Virus record (IMG/VR): IMGVR_UViG_3300042937_000239
Length of the DNA: 64,000 bases
Direction: 5' to 3' (one strand)
Source: an uncultured virus (IMG/VR IMGVR_UViG_3300042937_000239)
Taxonomy: Duplodnaviria; Heunggongvirae; Uroviricota; Caudoviricetes
Both the position numbers and the translations under genes were made by a program. Below, one piece after another: positions 880 to 54,600 of the stretch (within the stretch, counting starts at the first letter, position 1; the number at the start of each line of letters is the position of its first letter). The notes beneath the pieces were generated by a model. It ran no database searches. It worked only from the letters and a program-made list of their open reading frames with translations, and was not told the DNA's origin.

Positions 880-884
880 ACGAG

Positions 885-1085: not shown

Positions 1086-1103
1086 ACCCCGTTAAATTAA
1101 CCC
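1086..1103 (+). promoter_or_regulatory. motif A copy 1 (ACCCCGTTAAATTAACCC), putative phage RNAP promoter
   Basis: Exact 18-mer found 7 times, always intergenic and in the same orientation. Confidence 0.75.
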
Positions 1104-1150
1104 TTGCGGCCTCCCCCTGTATTATCTCTCTTAGTAATACGGAAATAATA

Positions 1151-1172
1151 GTATCTTATATGAAGTACAATA
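1151..1172 (+). promoter_or_regulatory. motif B copy 1 (GTATCTTATATGAAGTACAATA), putative early promoter
   Basis: Exact 22-mer found 3 times, each just upstream of an RBS and ATG in the early region. Confidence 0.75.
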
Positions 1173-2026: not shown

Positions 2027-2039
2027 CGCGGGAAATACG

Positions 2040-2061
2040 GTATCTTATATGAAGTACAATA
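2040..2061 (+). promoter_or_regulatory. motif B copy 2
   Basis: Exact 22-mer preceded by AACGCGGGAAATACG; upstream of ORF 2080. Confidence 0.75.
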
Positions 2062-3040: not shown

Positions 3041-3212
3041 GCGAATGGTATAGTTTTATTGAAGCAATGTTAATGGTTGGTTTTTATTTTGTTTATGTAG
3101 CTTACAATGTATTTGCAGAAGACTGCAAAGATAGACGTAAGTATTGCAAAGCACGCCGGTGGCTACGTCAAGCTATTATCCAAAAGGACTACAAATAAAC
3201 GCGGGAAACGGG

Positions 3213-3234
3213 GTATCTTATATGAAGTACAATA
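3213..3234 (+). promoter_or_regulatory. motif B copy 3
   Basis: Exact 22-mer preceded by AACGCGGGAAACGGG; upstream of ORF 3268. Confidence 0.75.
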
Positions 3235-4798: not shown

Positions 4799-4811
4799 CC
4801 TTTTGGTATTT

Positions 4812-7031
4812 ATGCGAAATAAATTATTACGTTCTTTAAAGTCTAGAATTGTGTCTGAGATCGCTCCTCAATCTCCATTACGATTCTTAAAGAAGTTGAA
4901 TATCGAAGATCATCTTGATGAGATAATTGCCAACGCTTATTTGTATACCAGGCCCAAGAAAGGTTCTGATAAGCAGATTATAATGTCAGAAGTAATTAGT
5001 ATTCTTGGCCATAATATGCGCAAGGGTGAAAAGAAAGACTCTGCTACTGCAGCAAGATGTGGAGCATTCATTCTGTATTCTTTTGACATCTTAGGTCTAA
5101 CAGAAATTGTAATGACTAATGCAGCCAATGGGCACGGTACATATATTGTTAATGTAATTGATGAAAAGAGTATGCAAGAATTGTGGGAAACTGTTGGCAG
5201 GCAAGGAGGTAAAGGAAAACTGCCCTCACTAGTACCATATGAAGATTGGAAAGGATTTAAACATTCTACAGGATTGTCTTTAGTTAAGACACAGTCTAGG
5301 GATGTTGCAGCTACACTAACACCAGCTACTCACCCTATTGTATTTGAAGCAGTAAATAAGAGTCAGAGAGTTGGCTGGATTATAAACCAAGAAGTATACG
5401 CAGTTGCTAAGTGGGCATTAAGCAATAAAACAGAAGCATTCTCAGATATTTGGGAACAAAACAATCCACAGGCAAGAACAACAAAGCTGCGAGAAACCAA
5501 AGCAATCTTAAGTATTGCAGATAAGTTTGCTGATACAACTTTCTATCATTTGTACTATCTTGACTTTAGAGGCCGTAAGTACCCTACAACAGCATATCTG
5601 CATGAACAATCTTCAGATATAGCTAAAGGTTTGTTGCTTAGAAAAGACAAAAAAGTTATTGGACAAGAAGGTTTCTTTTGGTTATGTGTATCCATTGCAT
5701 CCAATTGGGCAGGCAGTTCAGGTAGAGAAGATGGGGCAAAAACTGACAAAATACCGCTCAAAGATAGATACCACTGGGTGCTAGATAATGAAGAGATATT
5801 AACAGCTTATGCATTGTCACCTAAATTACATCAAGGTTGGATGGATGCTGATAAGCCTTGGCAATTCCTTGCAGCTTGTGTAGAACTTAAAAATGCATTA
5901 AGTATGGGCTCAATGTACTTACAATATGAATCACATATAGAATGCTTTATTGATGGCTCTACTAATGGTTCTCAACACTTAAGTGCTTTGACTAGAGATG
6001 AAGTTACTGCTCCTTATGTTAATTTAGTACCACTAGACATGCCTGGTGATCTATATGCATACGTAGCGGCTCACGTGTGGATGAAGATTGATGCAGTTCT
6101 TAGCAGAATGCCACCTGCATTAATACTAGAGTGCGAAGAATTCATTGATGGGTTAATATCTCTGAAAAAGAAAATTGTAGCTGCAGAGCCTAAGTCTGAT
6201 TTGCGAGCAGAGTTAGTAATGCAAATTAGGCAGTATAAGAAAGATTGGGAATCTGTTGGTAATAAAGCTGCACCTGTATTCTGGGGTAGAATTAAAGACT
6301 CTAAACAAAGACGTAAAATTGTAAAGAGAAACGTAATGACATTACCTTATGGCGGCTCTAGCTATGGTCTATCTGAACAACAAATAGATGATTCAAAGAA
6401 ACATGGCATAGAGTTGTTAATGAATATGGAACATAAATGGGCAGCTTGGATGGGTAGATTAGTATATGAAGATGCTAAAGACTCTTTAGAAAGACCTATG
6501 ATGTTGTTGTCTGTATTTGAAAAAGCTGGCGCAGCTGCAGAGAAAAGAAGTCAATTCTTAGAGTGGGTTGTGCCTGTAACAAACTTTCCTGTAGTGCAAA
6601 ATTATACGGAAGGAAAGACTAAAAAGATACATATTCAGTGGGGGCCTAGAATAGGTGTTAGGAGTGATACCACAGGCTACTTTGGTAATGATATGCAATT
6701 GCATGTATGTTTTGTTGAGGATCAAGTTCCCTCAAAAGGAAAGCAGTCTCAAGGAGCAGCACCTAATGTAATCCATTCTTTGGATGCAGCACATCTAGCT
6801 ATGACAACAGTTAGATGTGACTTTCCTATCACTACAATCCATGATTCATATGGATGTTTGCTAGCAGACATGCCTAAGCTTTATCGTATTGTGCGTGAGA
6901 CATTTGTTGAGTTGTACCAAGATAATCCTTTGTACCCTATCATAGATAAGATTGATGGCGATCTTACTTATGTAGATATGGGTGATTTGGATGTTAATTT
7001 AATTCTAGAAAGTGAATACGCTTTCGCATAG
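4812..7031 (+). CDS. T7-like single-subunit DNA-directed RNA polymerase (stand-alone)
   Basis: LDFRGRKYP; motif A IDGSTNGSQHLSAL; motif B RKIVKRNVMTLPYG; APNVIHSLDAAHL; motif C IHDSYG; C-terminal YAFA. Start is ATG 4812 or TTG 4803. Confidence 0.95.
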   Translation: MRNKLLRSLKSRIVSEIAPQSPLRFLKKLNIEDHLDEIIANAYLYTRPKKGSDKQIIMSEVISILGHNMRKGEKKDSATAARCGAFILYSFDILGLTEIVMTNAANGHGTYIVNVIDEKSMQELWETVGRQGGKGKLPSLVPYEDWKGFKHSTGLSLVKTQSRDVAATLTPATHPIVFEAVNKSQRVGWIINQEVYAVAKWALSNKTEAFSDIWEQNNPQARTTKLRETKAILSIADKFADTTFYHLYYLDFRGRKYPTTAYLHEQSSDIAKGLLLRKDKKVIGQEGFFWLCVSIASNWAGSSGREDGAKTDKIPLKDRYHWVLDNEEILTAYALSPKLHQGWMDADKPWQFLAACVELKNALSMGSMYLQYESHIECFIDGSTNGSQHLSALTRDEVTAPYVNLVPLDMPGDLYAYVAAHVWMKIDAVLSRMPPALILECEEFIDGLISLKKKIVAAEPKSDLRAELVMQIRQYKKDWESVGNKAAPVFWGRIKDSKQRRKIVKRNVMTLPYGGSSYGLSEQQIDDSKKHGIELLMNMEHKWAAWMGRLVYEDAKDSLERPMMLLSVFEKAGAAAEKRSQFLEWVVPVTNFPVVQNYTEGKTKKIHIQWGPRIGVRSDTTGYFGNDMQLHVCFVEDQVPSKGKQSQGAAPNVIHSLDAAHLAMTTVRCDFPITTIHDSYGCLLADMPKLYRIVRETFVELYQDNPLYPIIDKIDGDLTYVDMGDLDVNLILESEYAFA

Positions 7032-8099: not shown

Positions 8100-8106
8100 G
8101 GATCTT

Positions 8107-8367: not shown

Positions 8368-8375
8368 GGGGCAAA

Positions 8376-9258: not shown

Positions 9259-9276
9259 ACCCCGTTAAATTAACCC
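9259..9276 (+). promoter_or_regulatory. motif A copy 2 (upstream of the replication module)
   Basis: Exact ACCCCGTTAAATTAACCC. Confidence 0.75.
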
Positions 9277-9306
9277 CTATATCAACCTACTATATGAGAT
9301 TTAAAA

Positions 9307-9804
9307 ATGGCAATTCTTAAAAATATTGAAATACACTGGCCACAACTTGATAAACCTGAATCAAAGTTTAATCCTCAGAATCCAAGATGGACAATGCAAT
9401 GCCGTACTTATGATAAGGCTCTCTCGAAACAAGTTAAAGCAATGGGAGTTAAGGTTGAGGCAGAGGAATTACCAGATGGTACAGAATACTGGAGATTCTC
9501 TTTAGGAAAGAATACTGTTTCAAAAACTACAGGGAACAAGAATCCGCCTGTAGAAGTTTTAGATGGTAACTTACAACCAATTCCCTCTAAGTCTATTGGC
9601 AACGGTTCTATTGCAAATGTACGTGTTTTAGAATGGGAAGATAAGAATAAAGCTGGCGTAAGTGCTGGTGCAATCTTAATGGCAGTACAAATTACAAAAT
9701 TAATTCCTTATGTAGCAAAAGGTATTGATAAAGAATCCTTTGAAGTTACAGAGACAGAGATTGTGTATGAAGAAATGCCAGACATTGATGGAGATGTATT
9801 CTAA
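9307..9804 (+). CDS. single-stranded DNA-binding protein (T7 gp2.5-like)
   Basis: IGNGSIANV and LMAVQITKLIPY motifs; acidic tail ending in Phe; first gene of the replication module. Confidence 0.8.
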   Translation: MAILKNIEIHWPQLDKPESKFNPQNPRWTMQCRTYDKALSKQVKAMGVKVEAEELPDGTEYWRFSLGKNTVSKTTGNKNPPVEVLDGNLQPIPSKSIGNGSIANVRVLEWEDKNKAGVSAGAILMAVQITKLIPYVAKGIDKESFEVTETEIVYEEMPDIDGDVF

Positions 9805-13702: not shown

Positions 13703-14203
13703 ATGAAATTCGAAGGAGTCGTTCCAACAACGGCTCCAGTCTCTATTAGTAGATTTTCTAATGGACACTGGAGATATTTTAAACAAATGAGAGAGGATAA
13801 GGCATATGTGGGATTCATCTATGCTATCTATGATAAAGTCCTTCTTAGATTCTATATTGGAAAGAAGAATTACTTCAGTACTGGTAAAGCTACTTTCGGA
13901 CGAGAGTCTGATTGGAAGAGATACAAGAGTAGTAGTTCAACAATTGCGGCTCACCTCAAAGAACGACCAGCAGAAGAATTTCTCTATATCTGCTTGGGGG
14001 AATACAAAACAAAAAGTGGACTCGCTTGGGCCGAAACGTGGTCGTTGGTGACACTAAAAGCACCATTCAGAGAAGATGTATACAACAAGCGAATAGAAGA
14101 AATTACGTGGAAAGTTACAGAAGATGTTGCACCACATCATGTAGAAAGATTAAATCTTATTTCTAAGGGATATATTCCAAATGACTTCGAGAGAGATTGG
14201 TAA
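13703..14203 (+). CDS. GIY-YIG-like endonuclease
   Basis: GFIYAI...FYIGKK; C-terminal YN. Confidence 0.65.
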   Translation: MKFEGVVPTTAPVSISRFSNGHWRYFKQMREDKAYVGFIYAIYDKVLLRFYIGKKNYFSTGKATFGRESDWKRYKSSSSTIAAHLKERPAEEFLYICLGEYKTKSGLAWAETWSLVTLKAPFREDVYNKRIEEITWKVTEDVAPHHVERLNLISKGYIPNDFERDW

Positions 14204-27225: not shown

Positions 27226-27243
27226 ACCCCGTTAAATTAACCC
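27226..27243 (+). promoter_or_regulatory. motif A copy 4
   Basis: Exact 18-mer. Confidence 0.75.
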
Positions 27244-27357
27244 TTTAGCTGCCCCCTTAATTATCCCTCATTTATAGTTATTCTCTTAATTAATACTTAT
27301 TAAGTAATACTATTAATAGAATACAATATATTGAGAGATGGATAGTAACATTGCTTA

Positions 27358-27375
27358 ACCCCGTTAAATTAACCC
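27358..27375 (+). promoter_or_regulatory. motif A copy 5 (upstream of the packaging module)
   Basis: Exact 18-mer. Confidence 0.75.
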
Positions 27376-27439
27376 TAAAAATTAAATAAATAAGAATAGT
27401 ACGTAAAATTGCTATTCGATTGAAAACCTAGAGGTTTGT

Positions 27440-38418: not shown

Positions 38419-40014
38419 ATGACAGGCACCGTTAAAACAGTAGCAGATCCTTGTCAGACATACATTCATTTTATATCTTCGTGGGCTAAAAGTCGTGCTG
38501 TTTGTAATGGTGAACGCGCAGTCAAAGAATTAGATGGACATTTAGATTTGATTCGGATGTCTAATCTTTTAATACCCTTTTCTCCTTCAATGAGTAGTGC
38601 GCAATACGATTTCTATAAAGCAGAAGCAGAGCTGCCTGGCATTACTGCACAATTTGCAAAAATGTTAGTAGGCGGTATGTTAAGAAAACCACCTATTGTA
38701 GAGTTACCAGAAAATGCTCCAGAAGATGCATTAGATTGGATAACAAATAACATAGGCAGAGATGACTCTACTTTAGTGGCTTTCTTAGATGATATTTTGT
38801 GGGAAGAAGTACAAACGTCACGTGCTTGGGTTTTCATTGATTATCCCCGTGTTTCTAATTCAGATCTTCTTGATAAAGAAACCAAAGAGCAAATAAAGCC
38901 TTACCCTATTTTACAGAAAGCTGAAACAATTATAAATTGGTCTACACGTACAAATATGTTTGGCAAAACAGTATTAAACAGGGTTATTGTAAAAGGATAT
39001 ATGGATGACTATACTACAAATGAATTCCATGCAATTCGGGTACCTGCAGTTTGGGTGCATGAGCTAGATGAGAGTGATGAGTATAGAATTCGTATTTATC
39101 AAGGCACAATTGCAGATAATGGTGATCAAACCTTAAAGCCAGGTGACGCTGCAAACAAGAATGACAGGTTGCTTCCAGCAGGAGGATTTCAGCTTATAGA
39201 AGTAATTGATAATATTTTGGCAAATGGCGAAAAACTAAATCACATACCTGCGTGGCCTTTAAATGGAAACATTACACCAGTTACTCCATTGCTTTCTCCA
39301 ATCGTTGATAAAGAAATTAGCTTATATAATAAAATTAGTAGAAGGAATCATCTATTGTATGGTGCTTCTACCTACACTCCTGTTATTGCTTCTGATATGC
39401 CTGATGAAGAGTTTGATGATATTGTACAAGCAGGCTTAGGCTCTTGGATACGGTTAAGACAAGGCGATACTGCAACTGTACTAGAAACACCTACAGCCGC
39501 ACTATCCGACATGCAAGCTGCAATTTTATCTACAATGGATGAAATGGCTAAGCTTGGCATTAGAATGCTAACAACAGAAAATGAACAATCTGGTATTGCA
39601 TTAGAATTGCGTAATGCATCTCAGACAGCACAGCTTGCTGTTCTTAGTACCAAAATATCTAATACAATGAAACAAGCAATATGTTTAATGCTAAACTGGC
39701 GGTATAATATAGACTGCAAGGCTTGTGATATCAAGTTTGAACTATCTGCAGACTTTGATCCAGTACCATTAGGTGCTGAGTGGTTAAACTTAATTACACA
39801 ATGGTATCAATCAGGCTTGTTGCCTAGACCAGTGTGGTTACAAATGCTTAAAGCAAATGATATACTTAATGCTGAGTATGATGATGAAGAAGCTATGGGA
39901 CAAATTAATCAAGATGAGCTGATTATCCCAGCCTCTACAAAATACAATGATCAATATTCAATGCAATTAGAAGCTGCTAAACAGGGGCAGAAAGCTAAAC
40001 CAATTAAAGAATAG
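38419..40014 (+). CDS. portal protein (DUF4055-like)
   Basis: 531 aa; directly upstream of the MuF gene; overall pattern matches siphovirus DUF4055-type portals. Confidence 0.75.
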   Translation: MTGTVKTVADPCQTYIHFISSWAKSRAVCNGERAVKELDGHLDLIRMSNLLIPFSPSMSSAQYDFYKAEAELPGITAQFAKMLVGGMLRKPPIVELPENAPEDALDWITNNIGRDDSTLVAFLDDILWEEVQTSRAWVFIDYPRVSNSDLLDKETKEQIKPYPILQKAETIINWSTRTNMFGKTVLNRVIVKGYMDDYTTNEFHAIRVPAVWVHELDESDEYRIRIYQGTIADNGDQTLKPGDAANKNDRLLPAGGFQLIEVIDNILANGEKLNHIPAWPLNGNITPVTPLLSPIVDKEISLYNKISRRNHLLYGASTYTPVIASDMPDEEFDDIVQAGLGSWIRLRQGDTATVLETPTAALSDMQAAILSTMDEMAKLGIRMLTTENEQSGIALELRNASQTAQLAVLSTKISNTMKQAICLMLNWRYNIDCKACDIKFELSADFDPVPLGAEWLNLITQWYQSGLLPRPVWLQMLKANDILNAEYDDEEAMGQINQDELIIPASTKYNDQYSMQLEAAKQGQKAKPIKE

Positions 40015-40025: not shown

Positions 40026-43000
40026 GTGGCCATTAATGCTAATACACAAATTTATGATAAAACACTAGATCGCGCAGCAATGCTACGACTACATGAGAGA
40101 AGGGTAGTTGGTAAGGTTGATGTAATCATTGATGGCCATATCCTTCGTCTGGACAAATTAATAAAAGCTTTTGAGGGTATGAATCCTTTTAAAGCTGCAT
40201 TAGATAAAGAGTTGCATAGAACGTATTCACAAATTAACAACTCAGTAGAGAAGGATTTACTGTCTTTGACTACAGATCAACTCTCTTTTGCTTACCAAAA
40301 AGTAGAAGTAGCAATGGGGCATATATGGCGTACTGAACGGCCTAAAGTTCGTGTTGCTGAAGAAATTGCGCTTGCTAATCCGCTCTATAAAAATCAAACA
40401 ATGGAACAAGGGTGGCAAGGTATTTCTAAAAATGAGAAGATTAGAATTGAAGCTGTAATTCGAAAAGGAATTGCAGATGGTAATACTATTGATGAAATAG
40501 CATTAGCAGTACGTACAGGAAATGTTCACAATATAACTAGAAACCAAGCAAAAGGCTTAGTCATTACTGCAGTTACTTCTGTAACAAATCAGGCTGACCA
40601 CGCAATATATAAAGCTAATGCAAAAGCACTATTAGGTTGGGAATACGTTGCGGTACTTGATGCTCGTACTACACCTTTGTGTGCAGGAAGAGATGGCCAT
40701 ATTTATGAGATAGGAGATGTTGTACACTTGCCTCCAGCTCATTGGCATTGCCGTTCTACAACAACACCTGTATTTAAATCATGGGATGATATTTCTAAAT
40801 TAGAAAGTGTTGCTCAAATACGTAAGCGAAACTTAGCAGGACTTACGGATAAACAAAAGGCTTTCTATGATGGCAATACTCCACTAAAAGAAAGCTATAA
40901 CGACTGGCTGCTAAGACAACCACAAGATGTTCAACTAAGACACTTAGGTGATTATAAGAAAGTAGGTATGTTTAATTCTCAACAACTTACTTTAGACAAA
41001 TTTACTAATGATGAAGGCAATACAATAGGTATCAAAGAGTTACGTAAGATGACAGATTCTACTTATGTACTTCCTAATGATACCCAGAAGTTTGCCAATG
41101 CTAAGGCTAAGTTAGATGCAATGCAATTGCCGATAATGACACCTGAAGATTTATTTGATAATAAAGAATTAGTAAAAACATTAAGAGATTATTATTTATT
41201 ACAAGCTGGAGAATTAGATGGTACTCTATCACTCACAAACTATCGCGGTGCCCTCATACACACCAAGAAAGCTACCAAATCACGAGTGCTAAACAATCTC
41301 CCGACTGAAGATCAAACAGTCTTTAATCCAGTTACAGGCCGTTACGAAGACACAAGGCTATACCAGCCTAACGTACAAGTACTAAATAATAACCTTAGAC
41401 TATTACGCGAAAGTCCAACATTAAAACAGGCAGATAAGGATTTTATCGAAAATTTTGTTGGTAGCCTTGATGAAAAGATGGGTGCAAATGAGAGAGCTGT
41501 AGTAGCAGATAATCTCCGTATTATCTTTACTAGGTTTAGAAATAATGGCGAGCAGTGGAATAATTTTAAAGCTGTTGTTCAGGGCCAAATTAAGTTTGAT
41601 GTAATGAATGTATCTGATTCATTAGAAACACAACTACGTGCTGATATTGATGTACTTAAAAAGCTTAAGCAAGATAATTACATTGATCCTATCTTAGGCC
41701 CTACTCAGTTACAAGACTTGCATGATAACTTTATCAGCAATATACGTGCTAAGAATAACTGGGAAGATTCCACTGCGCCTAAAATAGCCAGAGAATTGCG
41801 CAATACCTTTGACTATAAAATACCGCTTAAACTTAAGTTGTTGCCAAATGGTAAGCCACGTATCAGCGAAGAAGCTTTAACACAATTTTATTTGAAATTT
41901 GCTCATAGGCTGAGTCTTGCTGATATGCCTGATAGAGATCAATTTGCTGTAGCACTTGGCAGAGATTTATACAATCTTGCCAATTTAAATGGTAATAGAC
42001 GTGAATGGTACAGCACAGGTATGGCATTATTAGAAGCAAAGAATGTAAAGAAATTCTTCGAAGTAGAAACCTTTGGTGTACAAAAACGAAGAATGAAAAG
42101 TAGATTGAGTAACAGTTTGTTTGGGCCTTATTATGACACTCTGTCATATAACATACGTGTGACTGATCCTCGTGTACAAGAGTATGCACAGCTCACAAGG
42201 AAAGTGGATGTCGGCCTGCGTGTTGGCGTTACAACGGATAAGAACAAGTTAATATTCCGCGAGGGCTATAAGACTTATTTTATTGACAGAGGTCTCCTAG
42301 GTTTAGAAGATACACGTATACCTATTACATCTACAAATAGTTTTGGTGATTTTCCTGAGAAGTTTGTTGATAAGAATTTGGCAGATGCTTTAAACTGGGC
42401 ATCTAAGTCTAAATACAAAATTGACGAAGACTTCTATGATTTCACTCAGAAATTATTGTACTTCGAAGACGACAGAGGTAATGCCAAAAAGTACAACGAA
42501 TTGAATGAATACAAACATTACATATCTTCAAGAGGAGATGCTTATGAAAGATTCAAATCAATGGAATGGCTACGGACTCGAAAATATTCTTTTAGTAACC
42601 ATGCTTTTGTTGACCATCGTGCTCGTATATATGATCGCGGACTCATTAGTCCTCAGTCAGGAGAATCCTTCAGACCGTTCCTTAATACAGAACAATCAAA
42701 AGTGCTTGGTGAGGCTGGATACAGAAACTTTAGAGACCAAATAGGTGCATTCATGGGCGGTCTTAACGATACCTTTGAAGGACGATATAATTCATTATCC
42801 TTTACTGGTAGGCAAAAGATTGCTGATAAGCTATGGCCTGATATGGTAGAGATTGGTAATAAGATGTTACGTGCAAAGCCTGCTGACATTCGCGCTATAT
42901 TAGAATCAGAAATGGTACAATTAGTAGATGGCGAAGAGCTAGGCAAGTTCTTTAGGTTTGCTATGGAGTCAGCTAAGATAGATAATTATCTAAATGAAAA

Positions 43001-44960
43001 ACCACTAGCTGTTATTGTAAAAGGTAACCCTAAGTTTATAAAAGGTAATCCGTTAGCTGATAAGTTTTATAACGACATAAAAGCTAAGTTAGAAAATAAC
43101 GGTTATCGAGTTGAATTTGACATTGGCGCAGATTTTACTGAACCTGATCAAAATGCAGCATTAGTAGTTGGGCATTCGAGAGGTGTAGATAGATTGAAAT
43201 ATGCAGCTAAAACATCTAAAACATTTGAAATAAAAACTAAATCAGATGTTGGAAGTAGTCCTTTGCATTACACTTTGTCTGAGTCAGATTTGAAAAATTT
43301 AGCTTCAACTAATAGAATGAACTCCTATAAAACTGCATTAGCGCTTGAACAAGATGCTTCATCTTCTGGTGCTCAAATTATTGCATTAACAACAAAGAAC
43401 AAACAGTTAGCTGAATTATCTAATGTTGTACCTACAAATCAAAAGCGTAGGCTATATGATGAAATTGCTGCTGCCACTTATAATGATCCTCGTTTTAAAG
43501 TATTAAACGAGAAGTTAGGGTTAAATGAAAAAGATTTACGAAAAGCTGCGAAAGCTCAGAACATGGTTACGTTTTATGGTGCTGGTGAACGAACTGGCAT
43601 CCTTAATGTGGAAGGTAAATTATCAAAAGTCTTGGACAAGCAGGGTAACACGTTGGTCGTTAAAGCGTCTGATCGTGATAAGGTACTTAATGAGATTTCT
43701 GCAAGAGCAGCAAGATACGAACGTTTCGATCCTGAAACAGCTGAACAGCTCAAACAGCTCAGAGCAAATGTACGCGATATCTTTAATAAAGGCCAAGATC
43801 CTGGGGACGATATTATGGAAGCGCTCTACTTCCTCGATCCAGAGACTAGGCAGTTAGTTGAAAAGATGTCTCATCAATATGATAGAGTTGTAACACCAGC
43901 AGACTTTGCTGCTATTGCAAAACTAATGTCTGAACATCTAAGTGAACAAGTGCCTATTTTAAAAGACTTTACTAAGTTCTTTGGTAGACTTGCCGAAGAT
44001 TTCTTAGTTAATTCTAAGCCTTCTGAAGCAGCTCTTGACTGGAAATCTATTGGCCGTACAGCTGCCCTAAGACCTTATCAGAGAGGTTATGTACTTCCTG
44101 ATCGTATTAGCGAGATATTAGGTTTAAAGGCAGGAGAAGCAGTAACTGAAAAGTTCTTAAAAAGGTTTAATGGCTGGAAACCAGACGGCTCTTTAGCTGA
44201 TATTATCTATGGTGTAAAAGGCCCTGATGATAGACGTACTGGCTTTAAAGTACTTAAAATTGAACCTGTAGATAAGATTGAAATATCTAAGGGTATAGAA
44301 ATCTTTTATGCTAACAAGCTTCCTAAGTCTTGGACAAATGTACCTTGGGTTAATTTTGATGGTAAAATCATTGAACAGAACTTTACTCAAACATTTGAAG
44401 AGAGATTGTCTTATAAAGACAGGGATGGTAATTGGGTAAACAATATCTTGCAAATACCTCAAAAGACAGAAGCAACTTGGTGGGAACAGTTTGTAAATGC
44501 TGATGGTAAGATTAACGATATAGCTGATGCAGGAAAGGCACGTACTGCTTTTGCCGTTAATGGTAACCATTCAAATGACGCTACATTGGTTAAGAACTTT
44601 CACCTATGGGGCAAACAAAATGGCATTGCAACTAGTACTATTCATGACGCGTTCTTTGCTAATGCTGCAGATATGCTAAATGCTCGTGATGGTATTCGTA
44701 AATTATACGCAAAAACATTGGATGCTAATCCAGTGTTAGCTACACTAAATGAGATGAAGGCTCGTGGATTGCCTAAAGAGCTTTATGATCAATACCTTCA
44801 AGAAGCCATAGACAAAGGACTAATACCTGTAGAAGGTGTTTCTATTGTTGGTGGTAAACGCTTGAAGAAATCTGATATCCTTACTAAAGAGGATATTTTA
44901 TCAACAATACCCGATCCTACTAAATTTGAAAATGATTGGGGTTTTTATGGAATTGGATAA
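40026..44960 (+). CDS. MuF/SPP1-gp7 head morphogenesis domain fused to a T7-like single-subunit RNA polymerase (candidate virion RNAP)
   Basis: MuF: WEYVAVLDARTTPLC...PPAHWHCRST; RNAP: VDHRARIY...PQ, EQDASSSGAQ, RKAAKAQNMVTFYG, NGNHSNDA, IHDAF. Confidence 0.9.
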   Translation: MAINANTQIYDKTLDRAAMLRLHERRVVGKVDVIIDGHILRLDKLIKAFEGMNPFKAALDKELHRTYSQINNSVEKDLLSLTTDQLSFAYQKVEVAMGHIWRTERPKVRVAEEIALANPLYKNQTMEQGWQGISKNEKIRIEAVIRKGIADGNTIDEIALAVRTGNVHNITRNQAKGLVITAVTSVTNQADHAIYKANAKALLGWEYVAVLDARTTPLCAGRDGHIYEIGDVVHLPPAHWHCRSTTTPVFKSWDDISKLESVAQIRKRNLAGLTDKQKAFYDGNTPLKESYNDWLLRQPQDVQLRHLGDYKKVGMFNSQQLTLDKFTNDEGNTIGIKELRKMTDSTYVLPNDTQKFANAKAKLDAMQLPIMTPEDLFDNKELVKTLRDYYLLQAGELDGTLSLTNYRGALIHTKKATKSRVLNNLPTEDQTVFNPVTGRYEDTRLYQPNVQVLNNNLRLLRESPTLKQADKDFIENFVGSLDEKMGANERAVVADNLRIIFTRFRNNGEQWNNFKAVVQGQIKFDVMNVSDSLETQLRADIDVLKKLKQDNYIDPILGPTQLQDLHDNFISNIRAKNNWEDSTAPKIARELRNTFDYKIPLKLKLLPNGKPRISEEALTQFYLKFAHRLSLADMPDRDQFAVALGRDLYNLANLNGNRREWYSTGMALLEAKNVKKFFEVETFGVQKRRMKSRLSNSLFGPYYDTLSYNIRVTDPRVQEYAQLTRKVDVGLRVGVTTDKNKLIFREGYKTYFIDRGLLGLEDTRIPITSTNSFGDFPEKFVDKNLADALNWASKSKYKIDEDFYDFTQKLLYFEDDRGNAKKYNELNEYKHYISSRGDAYERFKSMEWLRTRKYSFSNHAFVDHRARIYDRGLISPQSGESFRPFLNTEQSKVLGEAGYRNFRDQIGAFMGGLNDTFEGRYNSLSFTGRQKIADKLWPDMVEIGNKMLRAKPADIRAILESEMVQLVDGEELGKFFRFAMESAKIDNYLNEKPLAVIVKGNPKFIKGNPLADKFYNDIKAKLENNGYRVEFDIGADFTEPDQNAALVVGHSRGVDRLKYAAKTSKTFEIKTKSDVGSSPLHYTLSESDLKNLASTNRMNSYKTALALEQDASSSGAQIIALTTKNKQLAELSNVVPTNQKRRLYDEIAAATYNDPRFKVLNEKLGLNEKDLRKAAKAQNMVTFYGAGERTGILNVEGKLSKVLDKQGNTLVVKASDRDKVLNEISARAARYERFDPETAEQLKQLRANVRDIFNKGQDPGDDIMEALYFLDPETRQLVEKMSHQYDRVVTPADFAAIAKLMSEHLSEQVPILKDFTKFFGRLAEDFLVNSKPSEAALDWKSIGRTAALRPYQRGYVLPDRISEILGLKAGEAVTEKFLKRFNGWKPDGSLADIIYGVKGPDDRRTGFKVLKIEPVDKIEISKGIEIFYANKLPKSWTNVPWVNFDGKIIEQNFTQTFEERLSYKDRDGNWVNNILQIPQKTEATWWEQFVNADGKINDIADAGKARTAFAVNGNHSNDATLVKNFHLWGKQNGIATSTIHDAFFANAADMLNARDGIRKLYAKTLDANPVLATLNEMKARGLPKELYDQYLQEAIDKGLIPVEGVSIVGGKRLKKSDILTKEDILSTIPDPTKFENDWGFYGIG

Positions 44961-44962
44961 CA

Positions 44963-45334
44963 ATGAATATTGAACAAGAAATCGTAGCAAAAGGCTTAAC
45001 AGCACCACGTATTACACCTGCAGATATTGAAAGTAATATTAAGAGTGTACATTACTTTACAGCTTACGATGGTCGTTTAGGTGCAATTGCATCAAATACT
45101 TACGTAGCCCAAGAATCGCCTGAAGAAGATAATTTAGACTTAATCCCATTAGCCTTATTAACTTTTTGCGTAGTAGTATTACGTAACGGGTTTACTGTAA
45201 CAGGTGAATCTGCTTGTGCATCTCCTGAAAACTTTGACGCTGAGATTGGGCGTAAGGTTGCAAAAGAAAACGCTATTAGTAAAGTATGGCCTCTAATGGG
45301 CTATGAATTAAAATGCAAATTAACAGGCGGATAG
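44963..45334 (+). CDS. Phage_gp49_66 family protein (N4 gp49 / Sf6 gp66-like)
   Basis: APRITP..IE...LTFCVVVLRNGFTVTGESACASPENFDAEIG...W.LMGY. Confidence 0.85.
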   Translation: MNIEQEIVAKGLTAPRITPADIESNIKSVHYFTAYDGRLGAIASNTYVAQESPEEDNLDLIPLALLTFCVVVLRNGFTVTGESACASPENFDAEIGRKVAKENAISKVWPLMGYELKCKLTGG

Positions 45335-45703: not shown

Positions 45704-45721
45704 ACCCCGTTAAATTAACCC
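45704..45721 (+). promoter_or_regulatory. motif A copy 6
   Basis: Exact 18-mer, enclosed by the GGAGGCAG/CTGCCTCC inverted repeat. Confidence 0.75.
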
Positions 45722-45813
45722 TTCCCTGCCTCCCCCTATATTCATTATATATAGTATTATCTCTTATTATAATATCTATTATACTAAGTAATATACTATA
45801 TAATCATTATAGA

Positions 45814-45831
45814 ACCCCGTTAAATTAACCC
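45814..45831 (+). promoter_or_regulatory. motif A copy 7 (upstream of scaffold/capsid)
   Basis: Exact 18-mer. Confidence 0.75.
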
Positions 45832-45911
45832 TAAATATAAAATTTAGTGATTCCAACATTATAGATTGTATCTATAATATATAAAGAGTTGTACTCAAAG
45901 GAAATAAACAA

Positions 45912-46559
45912 ATGTCTACCGAAACTGATGAAACACAAACACAAGAAACTAATACTCCTGCTCCGGATAATATTACTCCCACTCCTCCTGTGGATGACGT
46001 GGACAGCAAGATCCAAGAAGCTCTTAAGCCAATCAAGACAAAACTTGACAGTGCGTACAAAGAGCGTGACGAGGCTTTAAGAAAAGCTGCAGAGTATGAA
46101 CAGAAAGAAAAAGAAGCTAATATAGCACGTCTACAAGAAGAAGGGAAACACAAAGAAGCCTTTGAACTTCAGTTAGCAGAGACCCAAGCTAAATTGGAAG
46201 CTGTAACAAAGCGTAACGTAGAGCTTGCTCGTGATGCAGAAATCAAAACTGTACTAGCAAACTATGCGCTTAGAAGTGACAAAGCTCGCGATATGGCCTA
46301 TATGGATATTGCCAGTCAACTTATTCAAAATGAGAATGGTGTCTGGGTTCACAAGAGTGGTGCCGATCTTAGAACGTTTGTAAAACAATTCTCTGAACAT
46401 GACGATAATTCTTTCTTGTTTAAAGCCAAACCATCATCAGGCGGCGGTACTACACCATCTGGAACAAATAATCTTCCTGATAACTCGCCTAAATCAATCT
46501 TTGCGATGTCTCAGGAAGAGGTACTCAAACTCGCGGCAGAAGGAAAGCTTCGCCGTTAA
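45912..46559 (+). CDS. capsid scaffolding protein
   Basis: Acidic N-terminus, coiled coil, F.AK.SSGGG linker; precedes the MCP. Confidence 0.8.
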   Translation: MSTETDETQTQETNTPAPDNITPTPPVDDVDSKIQEALKPIKTKLDSAYKERDEALRKAAEYEQKEKEANIARLQEEGKHKEAFELQLAETQAKLEAVTKRNVELARDAEIKTVLANYALRSDKARDMAYMDIASQLIQNENGVWVHKSGADLRTFVKQFSEHDDNSFLFKAKPSSGGGTTPSGTNNLPDNSPKSIFAMSQEEVLKLAAEGKLRR

Positions 46560-46574: not shown

Positions 46575-47825
46575 ATGGCAGCAAATAGCGTTACCTATAC
46601 CAGCGGAACAGCTGGTAATAATAACAACTATGTATTACAAGAAGCAATCGGCGCATACAGCGATGAAGCTTATACTAATGCTCGTAAGTTATCTGGTACT
46701 GGAATTACCTCTAGCAACCCACAAATTGACACTAACACAGAAACCTTTATTGGTCAAATGCGTTGGTTGAAACCTTTAAACCCTAAAATCAACATTGCAT
46801 CATTAACAGATGCTGCTGATGGCGAGAAAACTAACTATACATCTGACTTCAGTACTTACATTAAAACTGTACGTACACACGGTGCTGAAAAAGTCAATAT
46901 GACTGAAGTAGTTACTCGTCAAGATGGTTTAGCTAAAATTGGTCGTGACTTTGGTGAAACTCGTGCTCAAGACGAACATAATGCTATTCTTTCTGTACTT
47001 AAAGGCGTAGCTATTTCTGAAGCATTAGTTGGTACAGCAGGTGCTGGTGGCCAGTCATGGTCAAATGACCCTACTGACGCAGCTTATGGCTTCTATGTAG
47101 ATATCGGTTCAGCTACTGCTGGTGCAGGCAAAATCGTTTCTGGAAACGGTAAAGATAGAGACAACGTTCTTAACTATGCGTACCAAGGTGCTTCAAGAGC
47201 AGAAGGCTTGTTAGATGCATTTGGTAAAGCTTTCAAAGACTATGAACCAGATTGGGCATACTTAGCTGTATCTCCAGAAGTTTTAGCTTCTTTCCGTTCA
47301 GCTAACTTTGTTGATGAAACAACTGTAACCGAAGGTAATATTAACTTCCAAACAATTTTCAACGGTAAATTCCGCTTGATTGTAACACGGGCTAACCAAT
47401 CTTTAAGTGCATCTGATCTTGCTGTACTTAATGCAGGTGCTGGTGTTGATATTGTTGGTACTAAAACTTCATTCATCATTTTACCAGGTGCTATTGCAAT
47501 GGAAACATTAGCAGTGCCTGACTCAACTGAAGTATACCGTGATGCTAACAAATATAAAGGTGGCGGTGTTACCTCTGTTTGGTCACGTTGGGGTTATGTA
47601 TTAGCTCCTGCTGGTTATGATTGGAATGGTATTTCAACTGCATTCCCTTCAGATGCTGATTACGCTTCATACCGCAGTACTTCTGGCGGTAATACAACTT
47701 CAGTAGTTGCTGCTGCAGGAACACAAGCTGCTCTTATTTCTAACCGCGCTGCTGTAAAAGGCACTTGGACACGTAAAACAGCTTCTGCACTTTCATTGGG
47801 TATTTTACCAGTATTCCATTCTTAA
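46575..47825 (+). CDS. major capsid protein
   Basis: 416 aa after the scaffold; strong RBS; followed by neck genes. Confidence 0.8.
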   Translation: MAANSVTYTSGTAGNNNNYVLQEAIGAYSDEAYTNARKLSGTGITSSNPQIDTNTETFIGQMRWLKPLNPKINIASLTDAADGEKTNYTSDFSTYIKTVRTHGAEKVNMTEVVTRQDGLAKIGRDFGETRAQDEHNAILSVLKGVAISEALVGTAGAGGQSWSNDPTDAAYGFYVDIGSATAGAGKIVSGNGKDRDNVLNYAYQGASRAEGLLDAFGKAFKDYEPDWAYLAVSPEVLASFRSANFVDETTVTEGNINFQTIFNGKFRLIVTRANQSLSASDLAVLNAGAGVDIVGTKTSFIILPGAIAMETLAVPDSTEVYRDANKYKGGGVTSVWSRWGYVLAPAGYDWNGISTAFPSDADYASYRSTSGGNTTSVVAAAGTQAALISNRAAVKGTWTRKTASALSLGILPVFHS

Positions 47826-49071: not shown

Positions 49072-49644
49072 ATGGCACACATTTCTAGCTTAACCGCTGC
49101 AATGTTCTCTGATTTATCAGTAAATATAACACCAAGCTCAGACTCAGCATGGAACGCGCTTACTACAGAAGCAAACTATAACGGCAAATTTGCTGGTACT
49201 ACTGATAACATCGGCGTATCTATTTCACATTTGAAAGAGTTTCCTGCTTTAGGTACTCCTGCAAACATTACTAAAGTACCTGAGTACGGTTCTAAAACTT
49301 CTAAACAAGTACAAGGCCAAGCTGATCTTCCAAATATGGAAATCACACTCAACTACATTCCTACCTTATGGAAAGGAAATGAGCTTTATAATGAAACTAC
49401 TAACACTGCAACAGGTGTTAAAGTGGGTGACGGTAAGCTTTATATCTTCCGTTTTGCTTTATTAGGCACAGAGGCTGCATCTAACCCGACTTCTGCTAAC
49501 CTAGCTACCGTTGAGAACTCTTGCTTTTACTTCTTAGGTAAAATGGAAGCATTGGAAGTAACTTCAAGTTTAACTGAAGCTATGACTGCTAAGCTAACAA
49601 TTTCAGTACAATCTGAAATTAAAGGCGCATTCACTAACGGCTAA
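49072..49644 (+). CDS. major tail tube protein, copy 1
   Basis: KEFPALGTPANITKVPEYG..TS.QVQGQAD.P.MEITLNY. Confidence 0.8.
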   Translation: MAHISSLTAAMFSDLSVNITPSSDSAWNALTTEANYNGKFAGTTDNIGVSISHLKEFPALGTPANITKVPEYGSKTSKQVQGQADLPNMEITLNYIPTLWKGNELYNETTNTATGVKVGDGKLYIFRFALLGTEAASNPTSANLATVENSCFYFLGKMEALEVTSSLTEAMTAKLTISVQSEIKGAFTNG

Positions 49645-49653: not shown

Positions 49654-50346
49654 ATGGCAACAGCAAAAGGTCACATTTCTAGCTTAACAGCGGTAATGTT
49701 CTCAGACTTGTCAATGACTAATTACCCTGTCAGTAACTCAGACTGGGACAGTGCATTTAGTAATCCGCTTACCGTTGAAGATAAGCTTGGTAAATTATTT
49801 GACAATAAATCAAGATTAGTAACTATTGATGCTGATACTATTCCTGGTGGCGTATCTTTCGCAGATTTGATTGATACTACTAATGATGTATCACCAGGGT
49901 CTGCTGCTAGCTCTGCAGAGTTTGTTCGTATTACTCACTTAAAAGAATTCCCTGCTTTAGGTACACCTGCGAATATCACAAAGGTTCCTGAATACGGTTC
50001 TAAAACTTCTAAGCAAGTACAAGGACAAGCCGATCTTCCAAATATGGAAATCACTTTAAACTATATTCCTAGTTTATGGGCAGATGCATATGTGTATGAT
50101 GAAGAGGGTAGACGTCGTCAGCCAAGAGTTGGTGATGGGAAGACTTATGTATTCCGCTTTACTTTATTAGGCACAGAGCCTTCAGGCTTTACAACAACTG
50201 AATTGCGTGATAGCGAGCATTCATGTTTCTATTTCTTAGGTAAAATTGAAGCTATTGAAGTAACTTCAAGCTTAACCGAAGCAATGACAGCAAAGCTTAC
50301 TATCTCGGTTCAATCAGAAATTAAAGGTGCTTATACAGCAGCTTAG
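49654..50346 (+). CDS. major tail tube protein, copy 2 (paralogue with an insertion)
   Basis: Near-identical core to copy 1. Confidence 0.8.
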   Translation: MATAKGHISSLTAVMFSDLSMTNYPVSNSDWDSAFSNPLTVEDKLGKLFDNKSRLVTIDADTIPGGVSFADLIDTTNDVSPGSAASSAEFVRITHLKEFPALGTPANITKVPEYGSKTSKQVQGQADLPNMEITLNYIPSLWADAYVYDEEGRRRQPRVGDGKTYVFRFTLLGTEPSGFTTTELRDSEHSCFYFLGKIEAIEVTSSLTEAMTAKLTISVQSEIKGAYTAA

Positions 50347-51600: not shown

Positions 51601-54600
51601 ATGTCAGGTATAGTAATTGAAGTCGATGCTAATACCCGAAAAGCACAGAGAAATCTAGAGGAAGTAAATACTACGGTTAAGTCAATTTCACAAAGTGTGA
51701 ATTCAATGGCCGATGGCTTCAAAAGTGCTTTTATAGCAATTGGAACCACCTTTGCAGCAGATCAGCTTCTAAAGTATGTAGAAGAAACTACATCATCTTT
51801 ACAAGAGATGGAAAACAAAGTTGCACTAGTTGTAGGTAAGAGTAACGAATTATATGATACACAAGTAAGACTTAGAAATATTGCAGATGAAACCAATGGT
51901 ACTTATAGAGAAACCGTTGAAGTATTTACTGCAATGGGACGCGCAATGCGTAACACTAATGTTGATATTGATAAATTAGCACGGTCTTCTAAAACAATAC
52001 AACAAGCAGTAGCAATCTCAGGCTCTTCTGCAGAAAGCTCTAAAGCAGCTTTAACTCAGTTGGGTCAAGCTTTCTCCTCTGGTGTTTTAAGAGGCGAAGA
52101 ATTAAACTCTGTAATGGAGCAAACACCACGTATTGCAGGCATGATTGCAGACAGTATGGGTGTCACATTAGGTCAAATGAGACTTATTGCTGCTCAGGGA
52201 GAAATAACTTCTGAAGTAATCTTCAAAGCACTTGCAGATCAAGCAGAAACAATTAATAAAGAATTCAAAAATATTGTACCTACATTATCTACAGGTTTCT
52301 TAAAGTTAAAAGAAAATGCAGCTTATGTATTTGTTGAATTTGACAAAGGCTTGGCGCTGTCTGAAAAGCTTTCAAAGAGTGTTTATAATCTTTCACAAGA
52401 ATTAGGAAAGTCTGTTGACAAGGCTTACTTACTTGGAAATGCTTTGCGATTTTCTTTGGTGGGTTTTAAGAATCCACTTGAGGATTTGCTAGAGCCTGTT
52501 AAGCAAATGTTAGAGATATCAATATATGCAATACAGCATTCTCTAGATACGATTGGTTTGACAAGGTTTATAACCACAGTAATAGAGCCTTTTGTAACTC
52601 AATTTACTGCTGCTATTGATATCGCAATCATGCGTTGGCAAATGTTTGGCAAAATGCTACGCTCTGTCAAAGGCGATGATATGTTTTATCTATTAAAACC
52701 TATGCAAGCTATTGGCGAAATAACAGCATTAACTCTTAGAAATACATTAGTAAAAGTTAGTGCAGAAATCTTGGCATATGAGCAATCTGTCACAGGTCGT
52801 TTTAGAGCATTCATAATAAAGGAAATGAGATCCTTTAATATAGGTGGCGAAATTGTCTGGTACAGAATGTCTAAACAATTAATACAGAATTTAAGAGATA
52901 CTGTCTTTGGTACTGACTCTGTTGCTGGAATTATTAGCAGTTTTGTAGGTTCTTTATTTTTAACACTTTCTACGGATCTTGTATCTGGTTTAAGAGATCT
53001 TGGAGAAACTCTAGCAGGCTACAATATACTTGAAAAGCTTTTTGGTGTTAGTTTTGGTGGCTCAAAGCTTGCAAGAATTGCTGGAAACTTAATGGTAACA
53101 GTGGCAGGTCTAGTAGACTCTTTAATGAATTCTCTAGTAAATGCTTCTGAAACATTCACTGAAGAATTATACTATAGACTAGCAGAAGGACTTAATTTAG
53201 TATTGCCTAAGTTTGCGCAAATAGACATGCCTATTGCCTTTAAGGTACATGTTGTATTTTCAAACATAGAGCAAAGTCTTGATAAAGTTTTAGATAGCCT
53301 TGTATCTGCAACAGCAATGTTGTCAAAGATAGATTTATTTGGTGCACTTACTGACGCTGCGTCTTATGCTTCTGGTGTATTTGTTGAGGTTTTAAATGTA
53401 CTTTTACATTGGATAACAACATTCTCCGAATTAGCTTTAAGAGGAGATTTAACAAATTGGTTTGAAGCCTTGGTAGACAAGGTACAATATTATTCAGATA
53501 CTCTGATAAAAGCATTAGCTCCAATTCAAGCTTTTGGTGATGCTGTTATTCAAGTGTTCTTTGAGATATATGACGCTGTTATTGCACATTCTTGGTGGAC
53601 AGATACTATTGATGAAATCATATACACATCTGCAACCTTATGGGGCAATACTTCAGTAGGCCTCAAGACTTTTGGAGACAATGTAATTGACTTGTTTGAA
53701 GTCATTTATACAAAGATTGGCGGTGTTTTAAATAGGATAGCTAGCCTTGATTTGTCGAAAACAATGTTCAAACTCAATAGCAAACTATATGCCTATTCAC
53801 CTAACTTAGCTGGATACGCTAAAGCTATTGAGGACTCTATACAAAAGTCTGTTGTATTCTTAAGAGATGTATTTTCAAATGATTTACTATTCAAAGGTTT
53901 GAGATATTCATTCACTGATACAATGTCTGGTGTTCTATCTTTTGTAAATCAAAGATTTAGAGCTTGGTTTAACACATGGCCATTGGCATTAAGACAAGCC
54001 TTTTCAGCCACAGTAATGGCAACGATTTTCAGCTCGTTACCTAAAGTTATTGCAGACGGTGTAATTGGCGGTTGGTTGCTAGCCTCCTCAATTATTGCAG
54101 GGACATCACTAGCTATTACGATTACTGCAAATACCTTTGATAAGAGCTTAGGCGTAGAGTTAGGCAAAGCAGCAGGTGATATTGCATCTGGTGTTGTTAA
54201 TGGTTCGCTTGTAGATATACCGAGATTGATTGGAGAAGGCTTTGCATTCTTTGGCAACTTTATGGAAAACTTCTTGACAGGTCTTCCTTACCTTGGTGTA
54301 ATATTCTCTGGTATCTTTAAGATTGCGTCTTTGTTTGGTTCTGCACCAGCAGTAGGTTTGTTGGGTGCTTGGCTATTTGGCGGATCTCTTGTAAGACTAA
54401 TGGTTGAATTAGGTGTCTACCGCAAAGGTTTGAGTGATGTATTACAGCGTCAGCGTAGTGTACAGTCATTCTTTATGGGTACTTACACAGGCAATAAGAC
54501 TGCAGGTGGACAACCTACTCCTTTAGGCAAAATGTCTAAAGCATTCTTTAATGATACAAACAGAACTCAAAGCCTTGCTATTACAGGGTTGATGATGGAC

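Follow-up and report, generated by a model that had tools for sequence, protein, structure and literature searches.

Why would a phage fuse one of its head proteins to an RNA polymerase (RNAP)? The question is raised by a gene at positions 40026..44960 of a 64,000-nucleotide (nt) stretch of DNA, hereafter the window, from an uncultured virus of the Caudoviricetes (IMG/VR record IMGVR_UViG_3300042937_000239). The gene encodes a protein of 1644 amino acids (aa; 187 kDa, pI 9.0) that starts with a MuF (SPP1 gp7-type) head-morphogenesis domain and ends with a T7-type single-subunit RNAP; that the two are in one polypeptide is certain. The original prediction, made from the sequence of the window, had proposed that MuF loads the polymerase into the virion and delivers it with the genome. 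We analysed the fusion protein, its relatives and its genomic context, and the best explanation of the whole, which we hold to be reasonably probable, is that the gene encodes a virion RNAP opening a relay of polymerases. Every gene called in the window lies on the + strand, as do the motifs described below, and all coordinates refer to this strand.

Two families in one reading frame

The open reading frame (ORF) of the fusion has no internal stop. It begins with a GTG codon, and a GAGG Shine-Dalgarno sequence lies 8 nt 5' of it. Gene callers choose Met19 instead, which gives the 1626-aa entry found in databases. We kept the GTG start because N6, D11 and R21 are near-invariant in the homologues of the protein.

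MuF and RNA_pol are the only Pfam families in the fusion protein. The N-terminal domain (40026..41129, residues 1-368) matches Phage_Mu_F (PF04233) at residues 141-246, covering profile positions 3-111 of 112 (51.8 bits for a cut-off of 29.6, E = 1.6e-13), and the PHROG head morphogenesis family phrog_241 over residues 57-368 (E = 2.3e-56). Its two signature motifs are WEYVAVLDARTTPLC (residues 205-219, nt 40638-40682) and PPAHWHCRST (residues 236-245, nt 40731-40760), and its invariant residues are T181, T184, N198, D212, C219, PP236-237, H239, C242, R243 and S244. The C-terminal module (41703..44957, residues ~560-1644) matches RNA_pol (PF00940; 45 bits for a cut-off of 22, E = 8.7e-12) and the PHROG RNA polymerase family phrog_414 (E = 1.7e-21). 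Between them lies a conserved, mostly helical linker (41130..41702, residues ~369-559). No Pfam family matched residues 351-858, and in the AlphaFold model described below residues 445-560 are helical, with a predicted local distance difference test (pLDDT) score mostly of 64-95, and fall outside the part aligned to T7 RNAP. Looking up the MuF and RNAP motifs of the original prediction in the translation, we found every one at the nucleotide position given for it. Its broader claim, that a MuF protein is fused to a complete T7-type RNAP, is upheld jointly by the two Pfam domains, the PHROG matches and the predicted fold.

The fusion protein is the MuF protein of the phage

SPP1 gp7, a member of the carrier family, binds portal and DNA. 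We asked whether the fusion gene occupies the place of a MuF gene. The portal gene (38419..40014; phrog_145, E = 2.4e-55) is directly upstream and ends 11 nt before the start of the fusion. Downstream are the genes of the head scaffolding protein (45912..46559; phrog_206, E = 9.9e-13) and of the major head protein (46575..47825; phrog_247, E = 1e-18). The slot between portal, scaffold and capsid genes that had been claimed for the fusion is thus the one it occupies. This arrangement is kept in relatives. We searched 86 loci, 38 of which had both portal and scaffold homologues, and in all 38 the order was portal, a gap of 4.7-8.2 kb holding the fusion, scaffold and capsid.

We found no MuF-type match among the other 48 ORFs scanned in the window, which is part of its genome. 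In each of five related records, namely four IMG/VR genomes rated 100% complete and that of the roseophage DSS3_VP1, there is one MuF match, each time in the long RNAP frame. Since the sole MuF match sits in the fused frame, the fusion is the MuF protein of the phage. A prediction of the complex between the portal protein (given as an alignment) and MuF residues 1-360 scored 0.02, with the mark at 0.32, and speaks neither way.

The polymerase is complete and very likely active

The RNAP module carries the motifs of the T7 family from one end to the other. The first is DHRARIY (residues 863-869, 42612..42632), the counterpart of T7 DWRGRVY, with R867. Motif A, QDASSSGAQ (residues 1109-1117, 43350..43376), holds the catalytic D1110 (nt 43353), and motif B, or O-helix, is RKAAKAQNMVTFYG (RKAAK..MVTFYG; residues 1172-1185, 43539..43580). 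NGNHSNDA (residues 1512-1519, 44559..44582), the counterpart of T7 NFVHSQDG, has a near-invariant H1515, and motif C, IHDAF (residues 1539-1543, 44640..44654), holds the catalytic D1541 (nt 44646). HMMER pairs segments of the fusion with T7 DWRGRVY, NFVHSQDG and IHDSF. The residues with established roles in T7 RNAP are the catalytic D537 and D812, K631, Y639 and H784. In an alignment of 34 sequences with identities to the fusion protein down to 24%, R867, D1110, K1173, K1176, Y1184, G1185, D1518 and D1541 are all invariant, and the same catalytic columns stay invariant when DSS3_VP1 is added (alignment of 11 sequences). Both catalytic aspartates named in the original prediction are therefore present and conserved across homologues.

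We then compared an AlphaFold model of residues 445-1644, built from a 34-sequence alignment (pLDDT 78.9; predicted template modelling score 0.77), with known structures. The polymerase hand that had been expected was found, and it aligns to nearly all of T7 RNAP. The top Foldseek matches are T7 RNAP and the yeast and human mitochondrial RNAPs (E ~1e-15). With VIA-align, model positions 116-1200 fall on T7 chain positions 30/35-883 with Z of 21-23, and mitochondrial RNAPs give Z of 21-24. For example, T7 RNAP 8dh5_M aligns at Z 23.4 (root-mean-square deviation, rmsd, 4.5; 557 residues aligned, model 119-1199 to chain 35-882), T7 RNAP 1s76_D at Z 22.4 (to chain 31-883) and yeast mitochondrial RNAP 6ymv_A at Z 23.7 (rmsd 6.7, 615 aligned). 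The scores are 17.4 for N4 RNAPII (6dt7_B), 13.3 for the N4 mini-virion RNAP (2po4, 526 aligned) and 11.7 for N4 gp50 (9pnt). Sequence identity in the structural alignments to T7 and mitochondrial RNAPs is 16-18%. As the alignment covers nearly all of T7 RNAP, residues ~560-1644 correspond to a whole T7-type enzyme, including the counterpart of its N-terminal domain.

The end of the protein is conserved too. In 28 of the 34 proteins it reads (W/F)YG(I/V)G followed by at most one residue, and the C-terminus of the model aligns to that of T7 RNAP. The C-terminus of the fusion is free, and T7 RNAP requires a free C-terminus. This requirement would account for the N-terminal position of the carrier.

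Could the module nevertheless be a catalytically dead relic that persists as a DNA-binding or space-filling head protein? Its divergence from T7-like enzymes is strong (a sequence search of the PDB retrieved T7 RNAP at only E = 0.02), and it contains large extra segments, as such a relic might. Yet its catalytic residues are all invariant over deep divergence, its C-terminal motif is conserved, its fold matches nearly the whole of T7 RNAP, and homing introns in relatives target its catalytic motifs (see below). We consider a relic very improbable. Judging from residue conservation and the predicted fold, the RNAP module is very likely active.

Interruptions of the gene in relatives

Homing elements usually occupy indispensable catalytic sites. 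We examined 10 loci, chosen for unusually long matches, with L011 and L042 added, and only one of the 10 had no interruption in the fusion gene. The interruptions are at motif B (six), residues 1206-1208 (two), H1515 (two), D1541 (two) and residue 882 (one). The interrupted relatives are EBPR siphovirus 1 (L001), L038, L042, L061, L069, L071, L073, L078 and L080. In EBPR siphovirus 1 the interruption (9179-9405 of L001) resembles a group I intron in Rfam (40.5 bits, E = 1.6e-8, below the gathering score of 50) and also holds an annotated HNH gene. Because the gene is interrupted there, GenBank lists its halves as 'head protein' and 'hypothetical protein'. The introns and inserts at catalytic motifs likely follow the usual homing pattern and, as far as their positions in the sequence tell, would support an active enzyme.

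An inserted domain before motif A

The protein has an in-frame insertion, a domain of 103 aa before motif A (42996..43304, residues 991-1093). Proteins of 1541 aa with 98% identity lack it, and the insertion is exact. The domain is a small alpha/beta fold with the motifs KGNP...FDxG...GHSRGxDR...HY, with N, D, G, P, GHSRG, R and a C-terminal H among its invariant residues. Folded alone, it reaches a pLDDT of 92, with GHSRG at a strand-to-helix turn. An intein was considered and rejected, since this conserved, folded domain also exists as small free-standing proteins and within other proteins, where its companions are GNAT, NUDIX, InPase, HicA, SNF2+KTSC or PARP-like domains. These partners are typical of injected polyvalent proteins.

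The family of the domain was searched for in several ways. Pfam matched neither the insert itself nor three of four small homologues, and the PDB profile search gave nothing below E = 0.86, Foldseek no match at E <= 0.001 and the protein Atlas no usable match. A wide VIA search reached a Z of 7.7 at best, its matches being generic folds of the flavodoxin-like, Rossmann-like and alpha/beta-hydrolase types; the alpha/beta hydrolases scored Z 6.4-7.1. From the modelled fold, our guess is that the insert might be a minimal serine-hydrolase-like effector module of the kind carried by injected polyvalent proteins.

The polymerase has the composition of a virion protein

Does the protein itself bear marks of life in the virion? 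The fusion has two cysteines only, C219 and C242, both in the MuF domain and both invariant. There is none in the 1402 residues after C242, and the last 1100 residues are free of cysteine in 32 of 33 relatives. The non-structural proteins of the window contain 89 cysteines in 7069 aa (1.26%), a rate at which a polymerase stretch devoid of them has a probability of 2e-8, and the structural proteins contain 19 in 8807 aa (0.22%), for which the probability is 0.05. The polymerase is thus composed like the extracellular proteins of the phage and unlike its enzymes. The fusion gene also shares with the terminase, tail-fibre and portal genes an operon headed by promoter-like motifs at 27226 and 27358, and this company of terminase and portal fits late synthesis.

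An alternative use of the enzyme must be weighed here. The fusion may be an intracellular late or middle polymerase, with MuF in an ordinary head role or acting as a procapsid tether, and with host RNAP reading the early genes. Its synthesis from a late operon would indeed make active enzyme present late in infection. On the other hand, the loss of every cysteine is unexpected for a purely cytoplasmic enzyme, and the free RNAP of the same phage, described below, keeps eight. Nor does this alternative account well for a fusion to the sole MuF that is kept in relatives from 24% to 98% identity.

A second polymerase and two classes of promoter-like motifs

The phage also encodes a stand-alone T7-like RNAP (4803..7031; 742 aa, 8 cysteines, C-terminus ...EYAFA), with matches to phrog_414 (E = 7.7e-122) and Pfam RNA_pol (E = 6.5e-67). 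Its similarity to the fused enzyme is limited to 27% identity over 75 aa (E = 3e-5) and 22% over 81 aa, and we rejected a recent duplication as the origin of the pair on these figures. Both a free (735-926 aa) and a fused (1510-1778 aa) RNAP frame occur in four of five related records, including DSS3_VP1; the fifth in this count, EBPR siphovirus 1, is a partial sequence.

Two phage-specific classes of repeated motifs head gene blocks in the window, all copies being on the + strand. Class I, GGTATCTTATATGAAGTACAATA, has three matches for 0 expected, and each falls within the 3.3 kb that precede the free RNAP gene. The first copy, AGTATCTTATATGAAGTACAATA, is at 1150..1172, 24 nt 5' of the start of the ORF at 1196, the second is at 2039..2061, and the third is at 3212..3234, after which no phage-specific motif follows until the stand-alone RNAP gene. 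All three directly precede early ORFs with Shine-Dalgarno sites. Class II, ACCCCGTTAAATTAACCCT, has seven copies for 0.01 expected in shuffles. The first is at 1086..1104, and the others start at 9259, 23710, 27226, 27358, 45704 and 45814. Four of them form two tandem pairs. The pair at 27226..27376 heads the late operon of terminase, tail-fibre, portal and MuF-RNAP genes; that at 45704..45832, just 3' of the fusion gene, heads the scaffold, capsid and tail operon. There is no class II site between 1086 and 9259, and the free RNAP gene would thus be reached only from promoters at 1086-3234.

Class II copies come in two flavours. At a distance of ~8 nt, those at 1086, 27226 and 45704 are followed by CCCCCT and TAT(A/T), as are copies in the relatives G004 and G005. 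Those at 9259, 23710, 27358 and 45814 lack both the C-rich box and TAT(A/T). At each late operon the tandem pair consists of one copy per flavour, with a spacing of 110-132 nt.

We checked the genome-wide distribution of the motifs in relatives. Class I is found exactly in a 99%-identical relative (three copies) and in an 86%-identical one (one copy), where the downstream genes differ. In G004, which is more distant (66% protein identity when the first 993 residues of the fusion are compared by tblastn), class II takes the form AGCCCGTTAACTTAACCC at five of five syntenic positions; from the sequences, this looks like a promoter co-evolving with its polymerase. Class I was not found in G004 or G005 at up to three mismatches, and the TACAAT within it is not conserved in G004.

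The N4 virion RNAP uses promoters in hairpin form. Here the class I sites, which are only candidate promoters, share no hairpin: their folding z-scores are -0.12, +0.68 and -2.66, and the structures differ. Sites resembling those of sigma-70 are not enriched in the region 600-9400 (21, compared with 30.6 +/- 4.6 in shuffles), with an E. coli-type consensus that may not be that of the host.

Which enzyme would use which class? Our best guess, by analogy with N4 and P23-45, is that class I may be the promoter of the virion enzyme and class II that of the free one. This is the weakest step of the argument, and several observations count against the explanation as a whole. Motifs of both classes precede the free RNAP gene, with class II at 1086 and class I at 1150-3212, and a terminator-like hairpin with a T run at 4775-4791 stands directly before that gene and might reduce the transcription that reaches it from the early promoters. 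Of class I, G004 retains just the 5' half, which occurs at one early and two non-early sites. G005 yielded no class I match even when six mismatches were allowed, and class II gave one weak match only. Finally, a probability of about 0.05 at the structural cysteine rate makes the cysteine signature one of a protein composed like a virion protein, not one of injection.

Some of these points favour the intracellular polymerase. It could work, for example, on class II promoters, which head the late operons, although one copy also heads the early region, and the class I-like motif of G004 is not confined to early genes. However, the phage already has a free T7-like RNAP, and the lack of enrichment of sigma-70-like sites, read with the caveat given above, does not suggest that host RNAP transcribes the early region. 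Taking both sides together, we regard an exclusively intracellular role as unlikely.

A probable virion RNA polymerase that would open a relay

We return to the virion RNAP. The fusion protein is likely packaged and injected through its MuF domain. The support for an injected virion enzyme is indirect, and consists of the sole MuF, the place of the gene in a late operon, the cysteine-free composition, the kept gene order, the second, free RNAP and the two classes of motifs. The sequence of events could be as follows. The fusion protein would be made late, from the operon that includes the terminase and portal genes. Its MuF domain, the only one of the phage, would load a small number of copies at the portal vertex of the procapsid. 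On infection, the polypeptide, free of cysteine in its polymerase part, would exit with the DNA through the portal and the tail channel, and the injected polymerase would transcribe the first genes without the host polymerase. Among these would be the gene of the stand-alone T7-like RNAP (4803-7031), which would take over the replication and morphogenesis modules. Such a relay would be like those of N4 and P23-45, but built from different parts.

Packaging and injection could also serve another end, either mainly mechanical, with transcription pulling in the genome, or the priming of replication. The RNAP is complete and conserved, as this too would require, and Chaban et al. 2024 (PMC10770324) propose for P23-45, crAss-like and N4-related phages that the joining of a virion RNAP to a large protein may link translocation of the DNA to its transcription. 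But a mechanical role is compatible with early gene expression rather than exclusive of it, the phage has its own primase-helicase (14181-15800), and three conserved motifs stand directly before early ORFs with Shine-Dalgarno sites. That the injected enzyme would act mainly in one of these ways therefore seems to us quite improbable, and early transcription remains the role that we favour.

Comparison with known systems

A functional parallel is N4 gp50, like the fusion a single-subunit right-hand RNAP, synthesized late, carried in the capsid and injected for early genes, as we propose here. The N4 relay passes from the virion RNAP to RNAPII and then to host RNAP, and a second T7-like polymerase is common to N4 and this phage. 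The architectures differ. N4 gp50, as outlined in the RNAP part of Iyer et al. 2017 (PMC5512222), has a 998-aa N-terminal region, a polymerase of ~1,100 aa and a 1,400-aa C-terminal region with a zincin peptidase for encapsidation, whereas the fusion has 1644 aa with MuF at the N-terminus, and no HExxH zincin motif was found anywhere in it. N4 is a podovirus and the fusion phage is of siphovirus type. The fold is also nearer to T7 and mitochondrial RNAPs (Z 22-24) than to the N4 mini-virion RNAP (Z 13.3), a more remote relative, in line with the original claim that the latter is a different protein.

P23-45 is similar in other respects. It is a siphovirus with an RNAP fused to a structural protein (gp96) and a second RNAP (gp64), according to the P23-45 part of PMC10770324, and a giant tape measure protein is common to both phages (>4133 aa here). 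The enzymes of P23-45 are of the two-barrel, cellular type and the carrier is the tail tape measure, whereas here the enzyme is a T7-type right hand and the carrier a MuF head protein; the tape measure of the fusion phage has only TMP_3 and SLT domains. The two-barrel virion RNAPs (P23-45 gp96 and crAss-like gp66, with double-psi beta-barrels and DxDxD) do not have the fold of the fusion, and the likeness is one of strategy only.

On the carrier side, MuF-effector fusions share the N-terminal MuF, the C-terminal enzymatic cargo, the place next to the portal gene and the predicted packaging and delivery. Their cargoes are toxins and small effectors, whereas here the cargo is a 1085-aa polymerase, presumably for gene expression of the phage itself. 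SPP1 gp7 and Mu F have the homologous domain, a portal-adjacent gene and a scaffold-based head module, but SPP1 gp7 is a small stand-alone protein. On the polymerase side, T7 and mitochondrial RNAPs share the fold over T7 positions ~30-883, T/DxxGR, motifs A, B and C and the free C-terminus. The fusion differs from these enzymes by a 560-residue N-terminal extension, the 103-aa insert before motif A, ~185 extra residues between motif B and HSxD, and a polymerase without cysteine. It combines two known kinds of protein, virion RNAPs and MuF-cargo fusions.

Distribution and published record

The same fusion was found in other phages: in DSS3_VP1, DSS3_PM1, EBPR siphovirus 1 and many metagenomic proteins. 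Matches to the fusion protein occur in 1009 of 50,697 phage records. Among the 40 listed, four have at least 80% coverage (EBPR siphovirus 1, DSS3_PM1, and DSS3_VP1 as two records), the other 36 matching the MuF part only. Identity is 57.7% for EBPR siphovirus 1, where the gene is split, and 29.6% for the roseophages DSS3_PM1 and DSS3_VP1. In a collection of 5.8 billion proteins, 362 of 7998 scored candidates matched at E <= 0.001. Both Pfam domains are present in 110 of the 120 homologues listed, the remaining 10 being shorter proteins of 913-1419 aa. Full-length fusions (1411-2073 aa) account for 18 of the 150 representatives listed at 50% identity. In IMG/VR, 98 of 648 pattern-matched stretches encode a relative of the fusion. 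Where the source of a homologue names it, the label is mostly 'SPP1 gp7 family putative phage head morphogenesis protein'.

The MuF-RNAP fusion is thus common in metagenomes, and it has gone unrecognized in DSS3_VP1, DSS3_PM1 and EBPR siphovirus 1. The main text of Rihtman et al. 2021 (PMC8323127) does not mention RNA polymerase, and in its supplementary table DSS3_VP1_056 alone bears the label 'RNA polymerase', while DSS3_VP1_028 is entered as 'minor head protein-like'. In its parts on RNAPs and MuF, PMC5512222 presents MuF proteins as components of the head with fused enzymatic domains, effectors that are likely passed into the host; the cargoes are toxins and small effectors, among them RNases, ARTs, RelA/SpoT and PRTase. 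The same parts confine N4-like virion RNAPs to N4-like phages and name no MuF-RNAP fusion. The word 'polymerase' is absent from the main text of Jamet et al. 2017 (PMC5576092), on MuF polymorphic toxins. In the sections of PMC10770324 on P23-45, the two-barrel virion RNAP fused to the tape measure reads pre-early genes, including that of a second, non-virion RNAP. Full-text searches, whose coverage excludes most subscription journals, returned no description of a MuF-RNAP fusion, which appears to be undescribed so far.

Other features of the window

The GC content of the window is 35-44%. At 846-1080, a strong terminator-like hairpin (852-873 and a T run) is followed by a 200-nt G-rich non-coding stretch with GGGGCA/GGGCGG repeats, with the late genes ending before it and the first promoter-like motifs after it. 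This G-rich stretch could serve as genome terminus, packaging site or origin. The early region, from 1196 to ~4700, is variable and has no family matches. After the stand-alone RNAP gene comes a replication block (DNA polymerase, exonuclease, primase-helicase, ribonucleotide reductase, ligase and kinase), and then ORFs without assigned function, the terminase gene (28062), tail-fibre-like genes, an endolysin gene and the portal gene.

The virion module is of siphovirus type. Downstream of the major head protein are the genes of an adaptor, a tail terminator, two tail-tube paralogues and the tape measure, and no prohead protease was detected in the head module. The adjacent tail-tube paralogues (49072-49644 and 49654-50346) share 76-85% DNA identity in blocks with a spacing of ~705 nt, and are a recent tandem duplication. 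The tape measure gene (51601-63999) runs off the end of the window; its product of >4133 aa has TMP_3 (62-249) and SLT transglycosylase (3012-3115) domains and no cysteine, and its length implies a very long tail, as in P23-45-like phages.

Between the fusion and scaffold genes there is a small ORF of the N4 gp49/Sf6 gp66 family (44936..45334; PF13876, E = 4.2e-32), which overlaps the end of the fusion gene by 25 nt. In N4, gene 49 adjoins gene 50, that of the virion RNAP, and here too a member of the family adjoins the polymerase gene. This ORF is present in three of 86 related loci and has 80% DNA identity over 99 nt to an unrelated Salmonella phage, vB_SalP_TR2. It is probably a mobile gene.

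Implications

We lean slightly towards the view that a large, globally distributed lineage of siphoviruses, found in freshwater and activated sludge and including the marine Naomviridae with deoxyuridine (dU)-DNA, starts infection with a T7-type RNAP that is free of cysteine, carried by MuF and threaded through portal and tail, with its own class of promoters and a relay of two polymerases. The cultured roseophages DSS3_VP1 and DSS3_PM1 carry the fusion, which makes the proposal testable now. A cysteine-free, refoldable, promoter-specific single-subunit RNAP, together with a second, orthogonal pair of polymerase and promoter, would also be of interest as a tool.

If the proposal is true, this would be the third independent invention of a virion RNAP, after N4 and the two-barrel enzymes of crAss-like phages and P23-45, and the first with a bona fide T7/mitochondrial-like enzyme as the injected one. 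It would mean that an enzyme of this type can itself be packaged and injected. The known designs are N4 gp50, crAss-like gp66 and P23-45 gp96, and MuF would be a fourth solution for the carrier. Members with the hydrolase-like insert would be polyvalent injected proteins. MuF proteins are widespread and poorly understood, and here one would act as the loader of a large cargo. As the homologues are labelled just as SPP1 gp7 family head morphogenesis proteins, current annotations would be missing a class of host-independent transcription systems.

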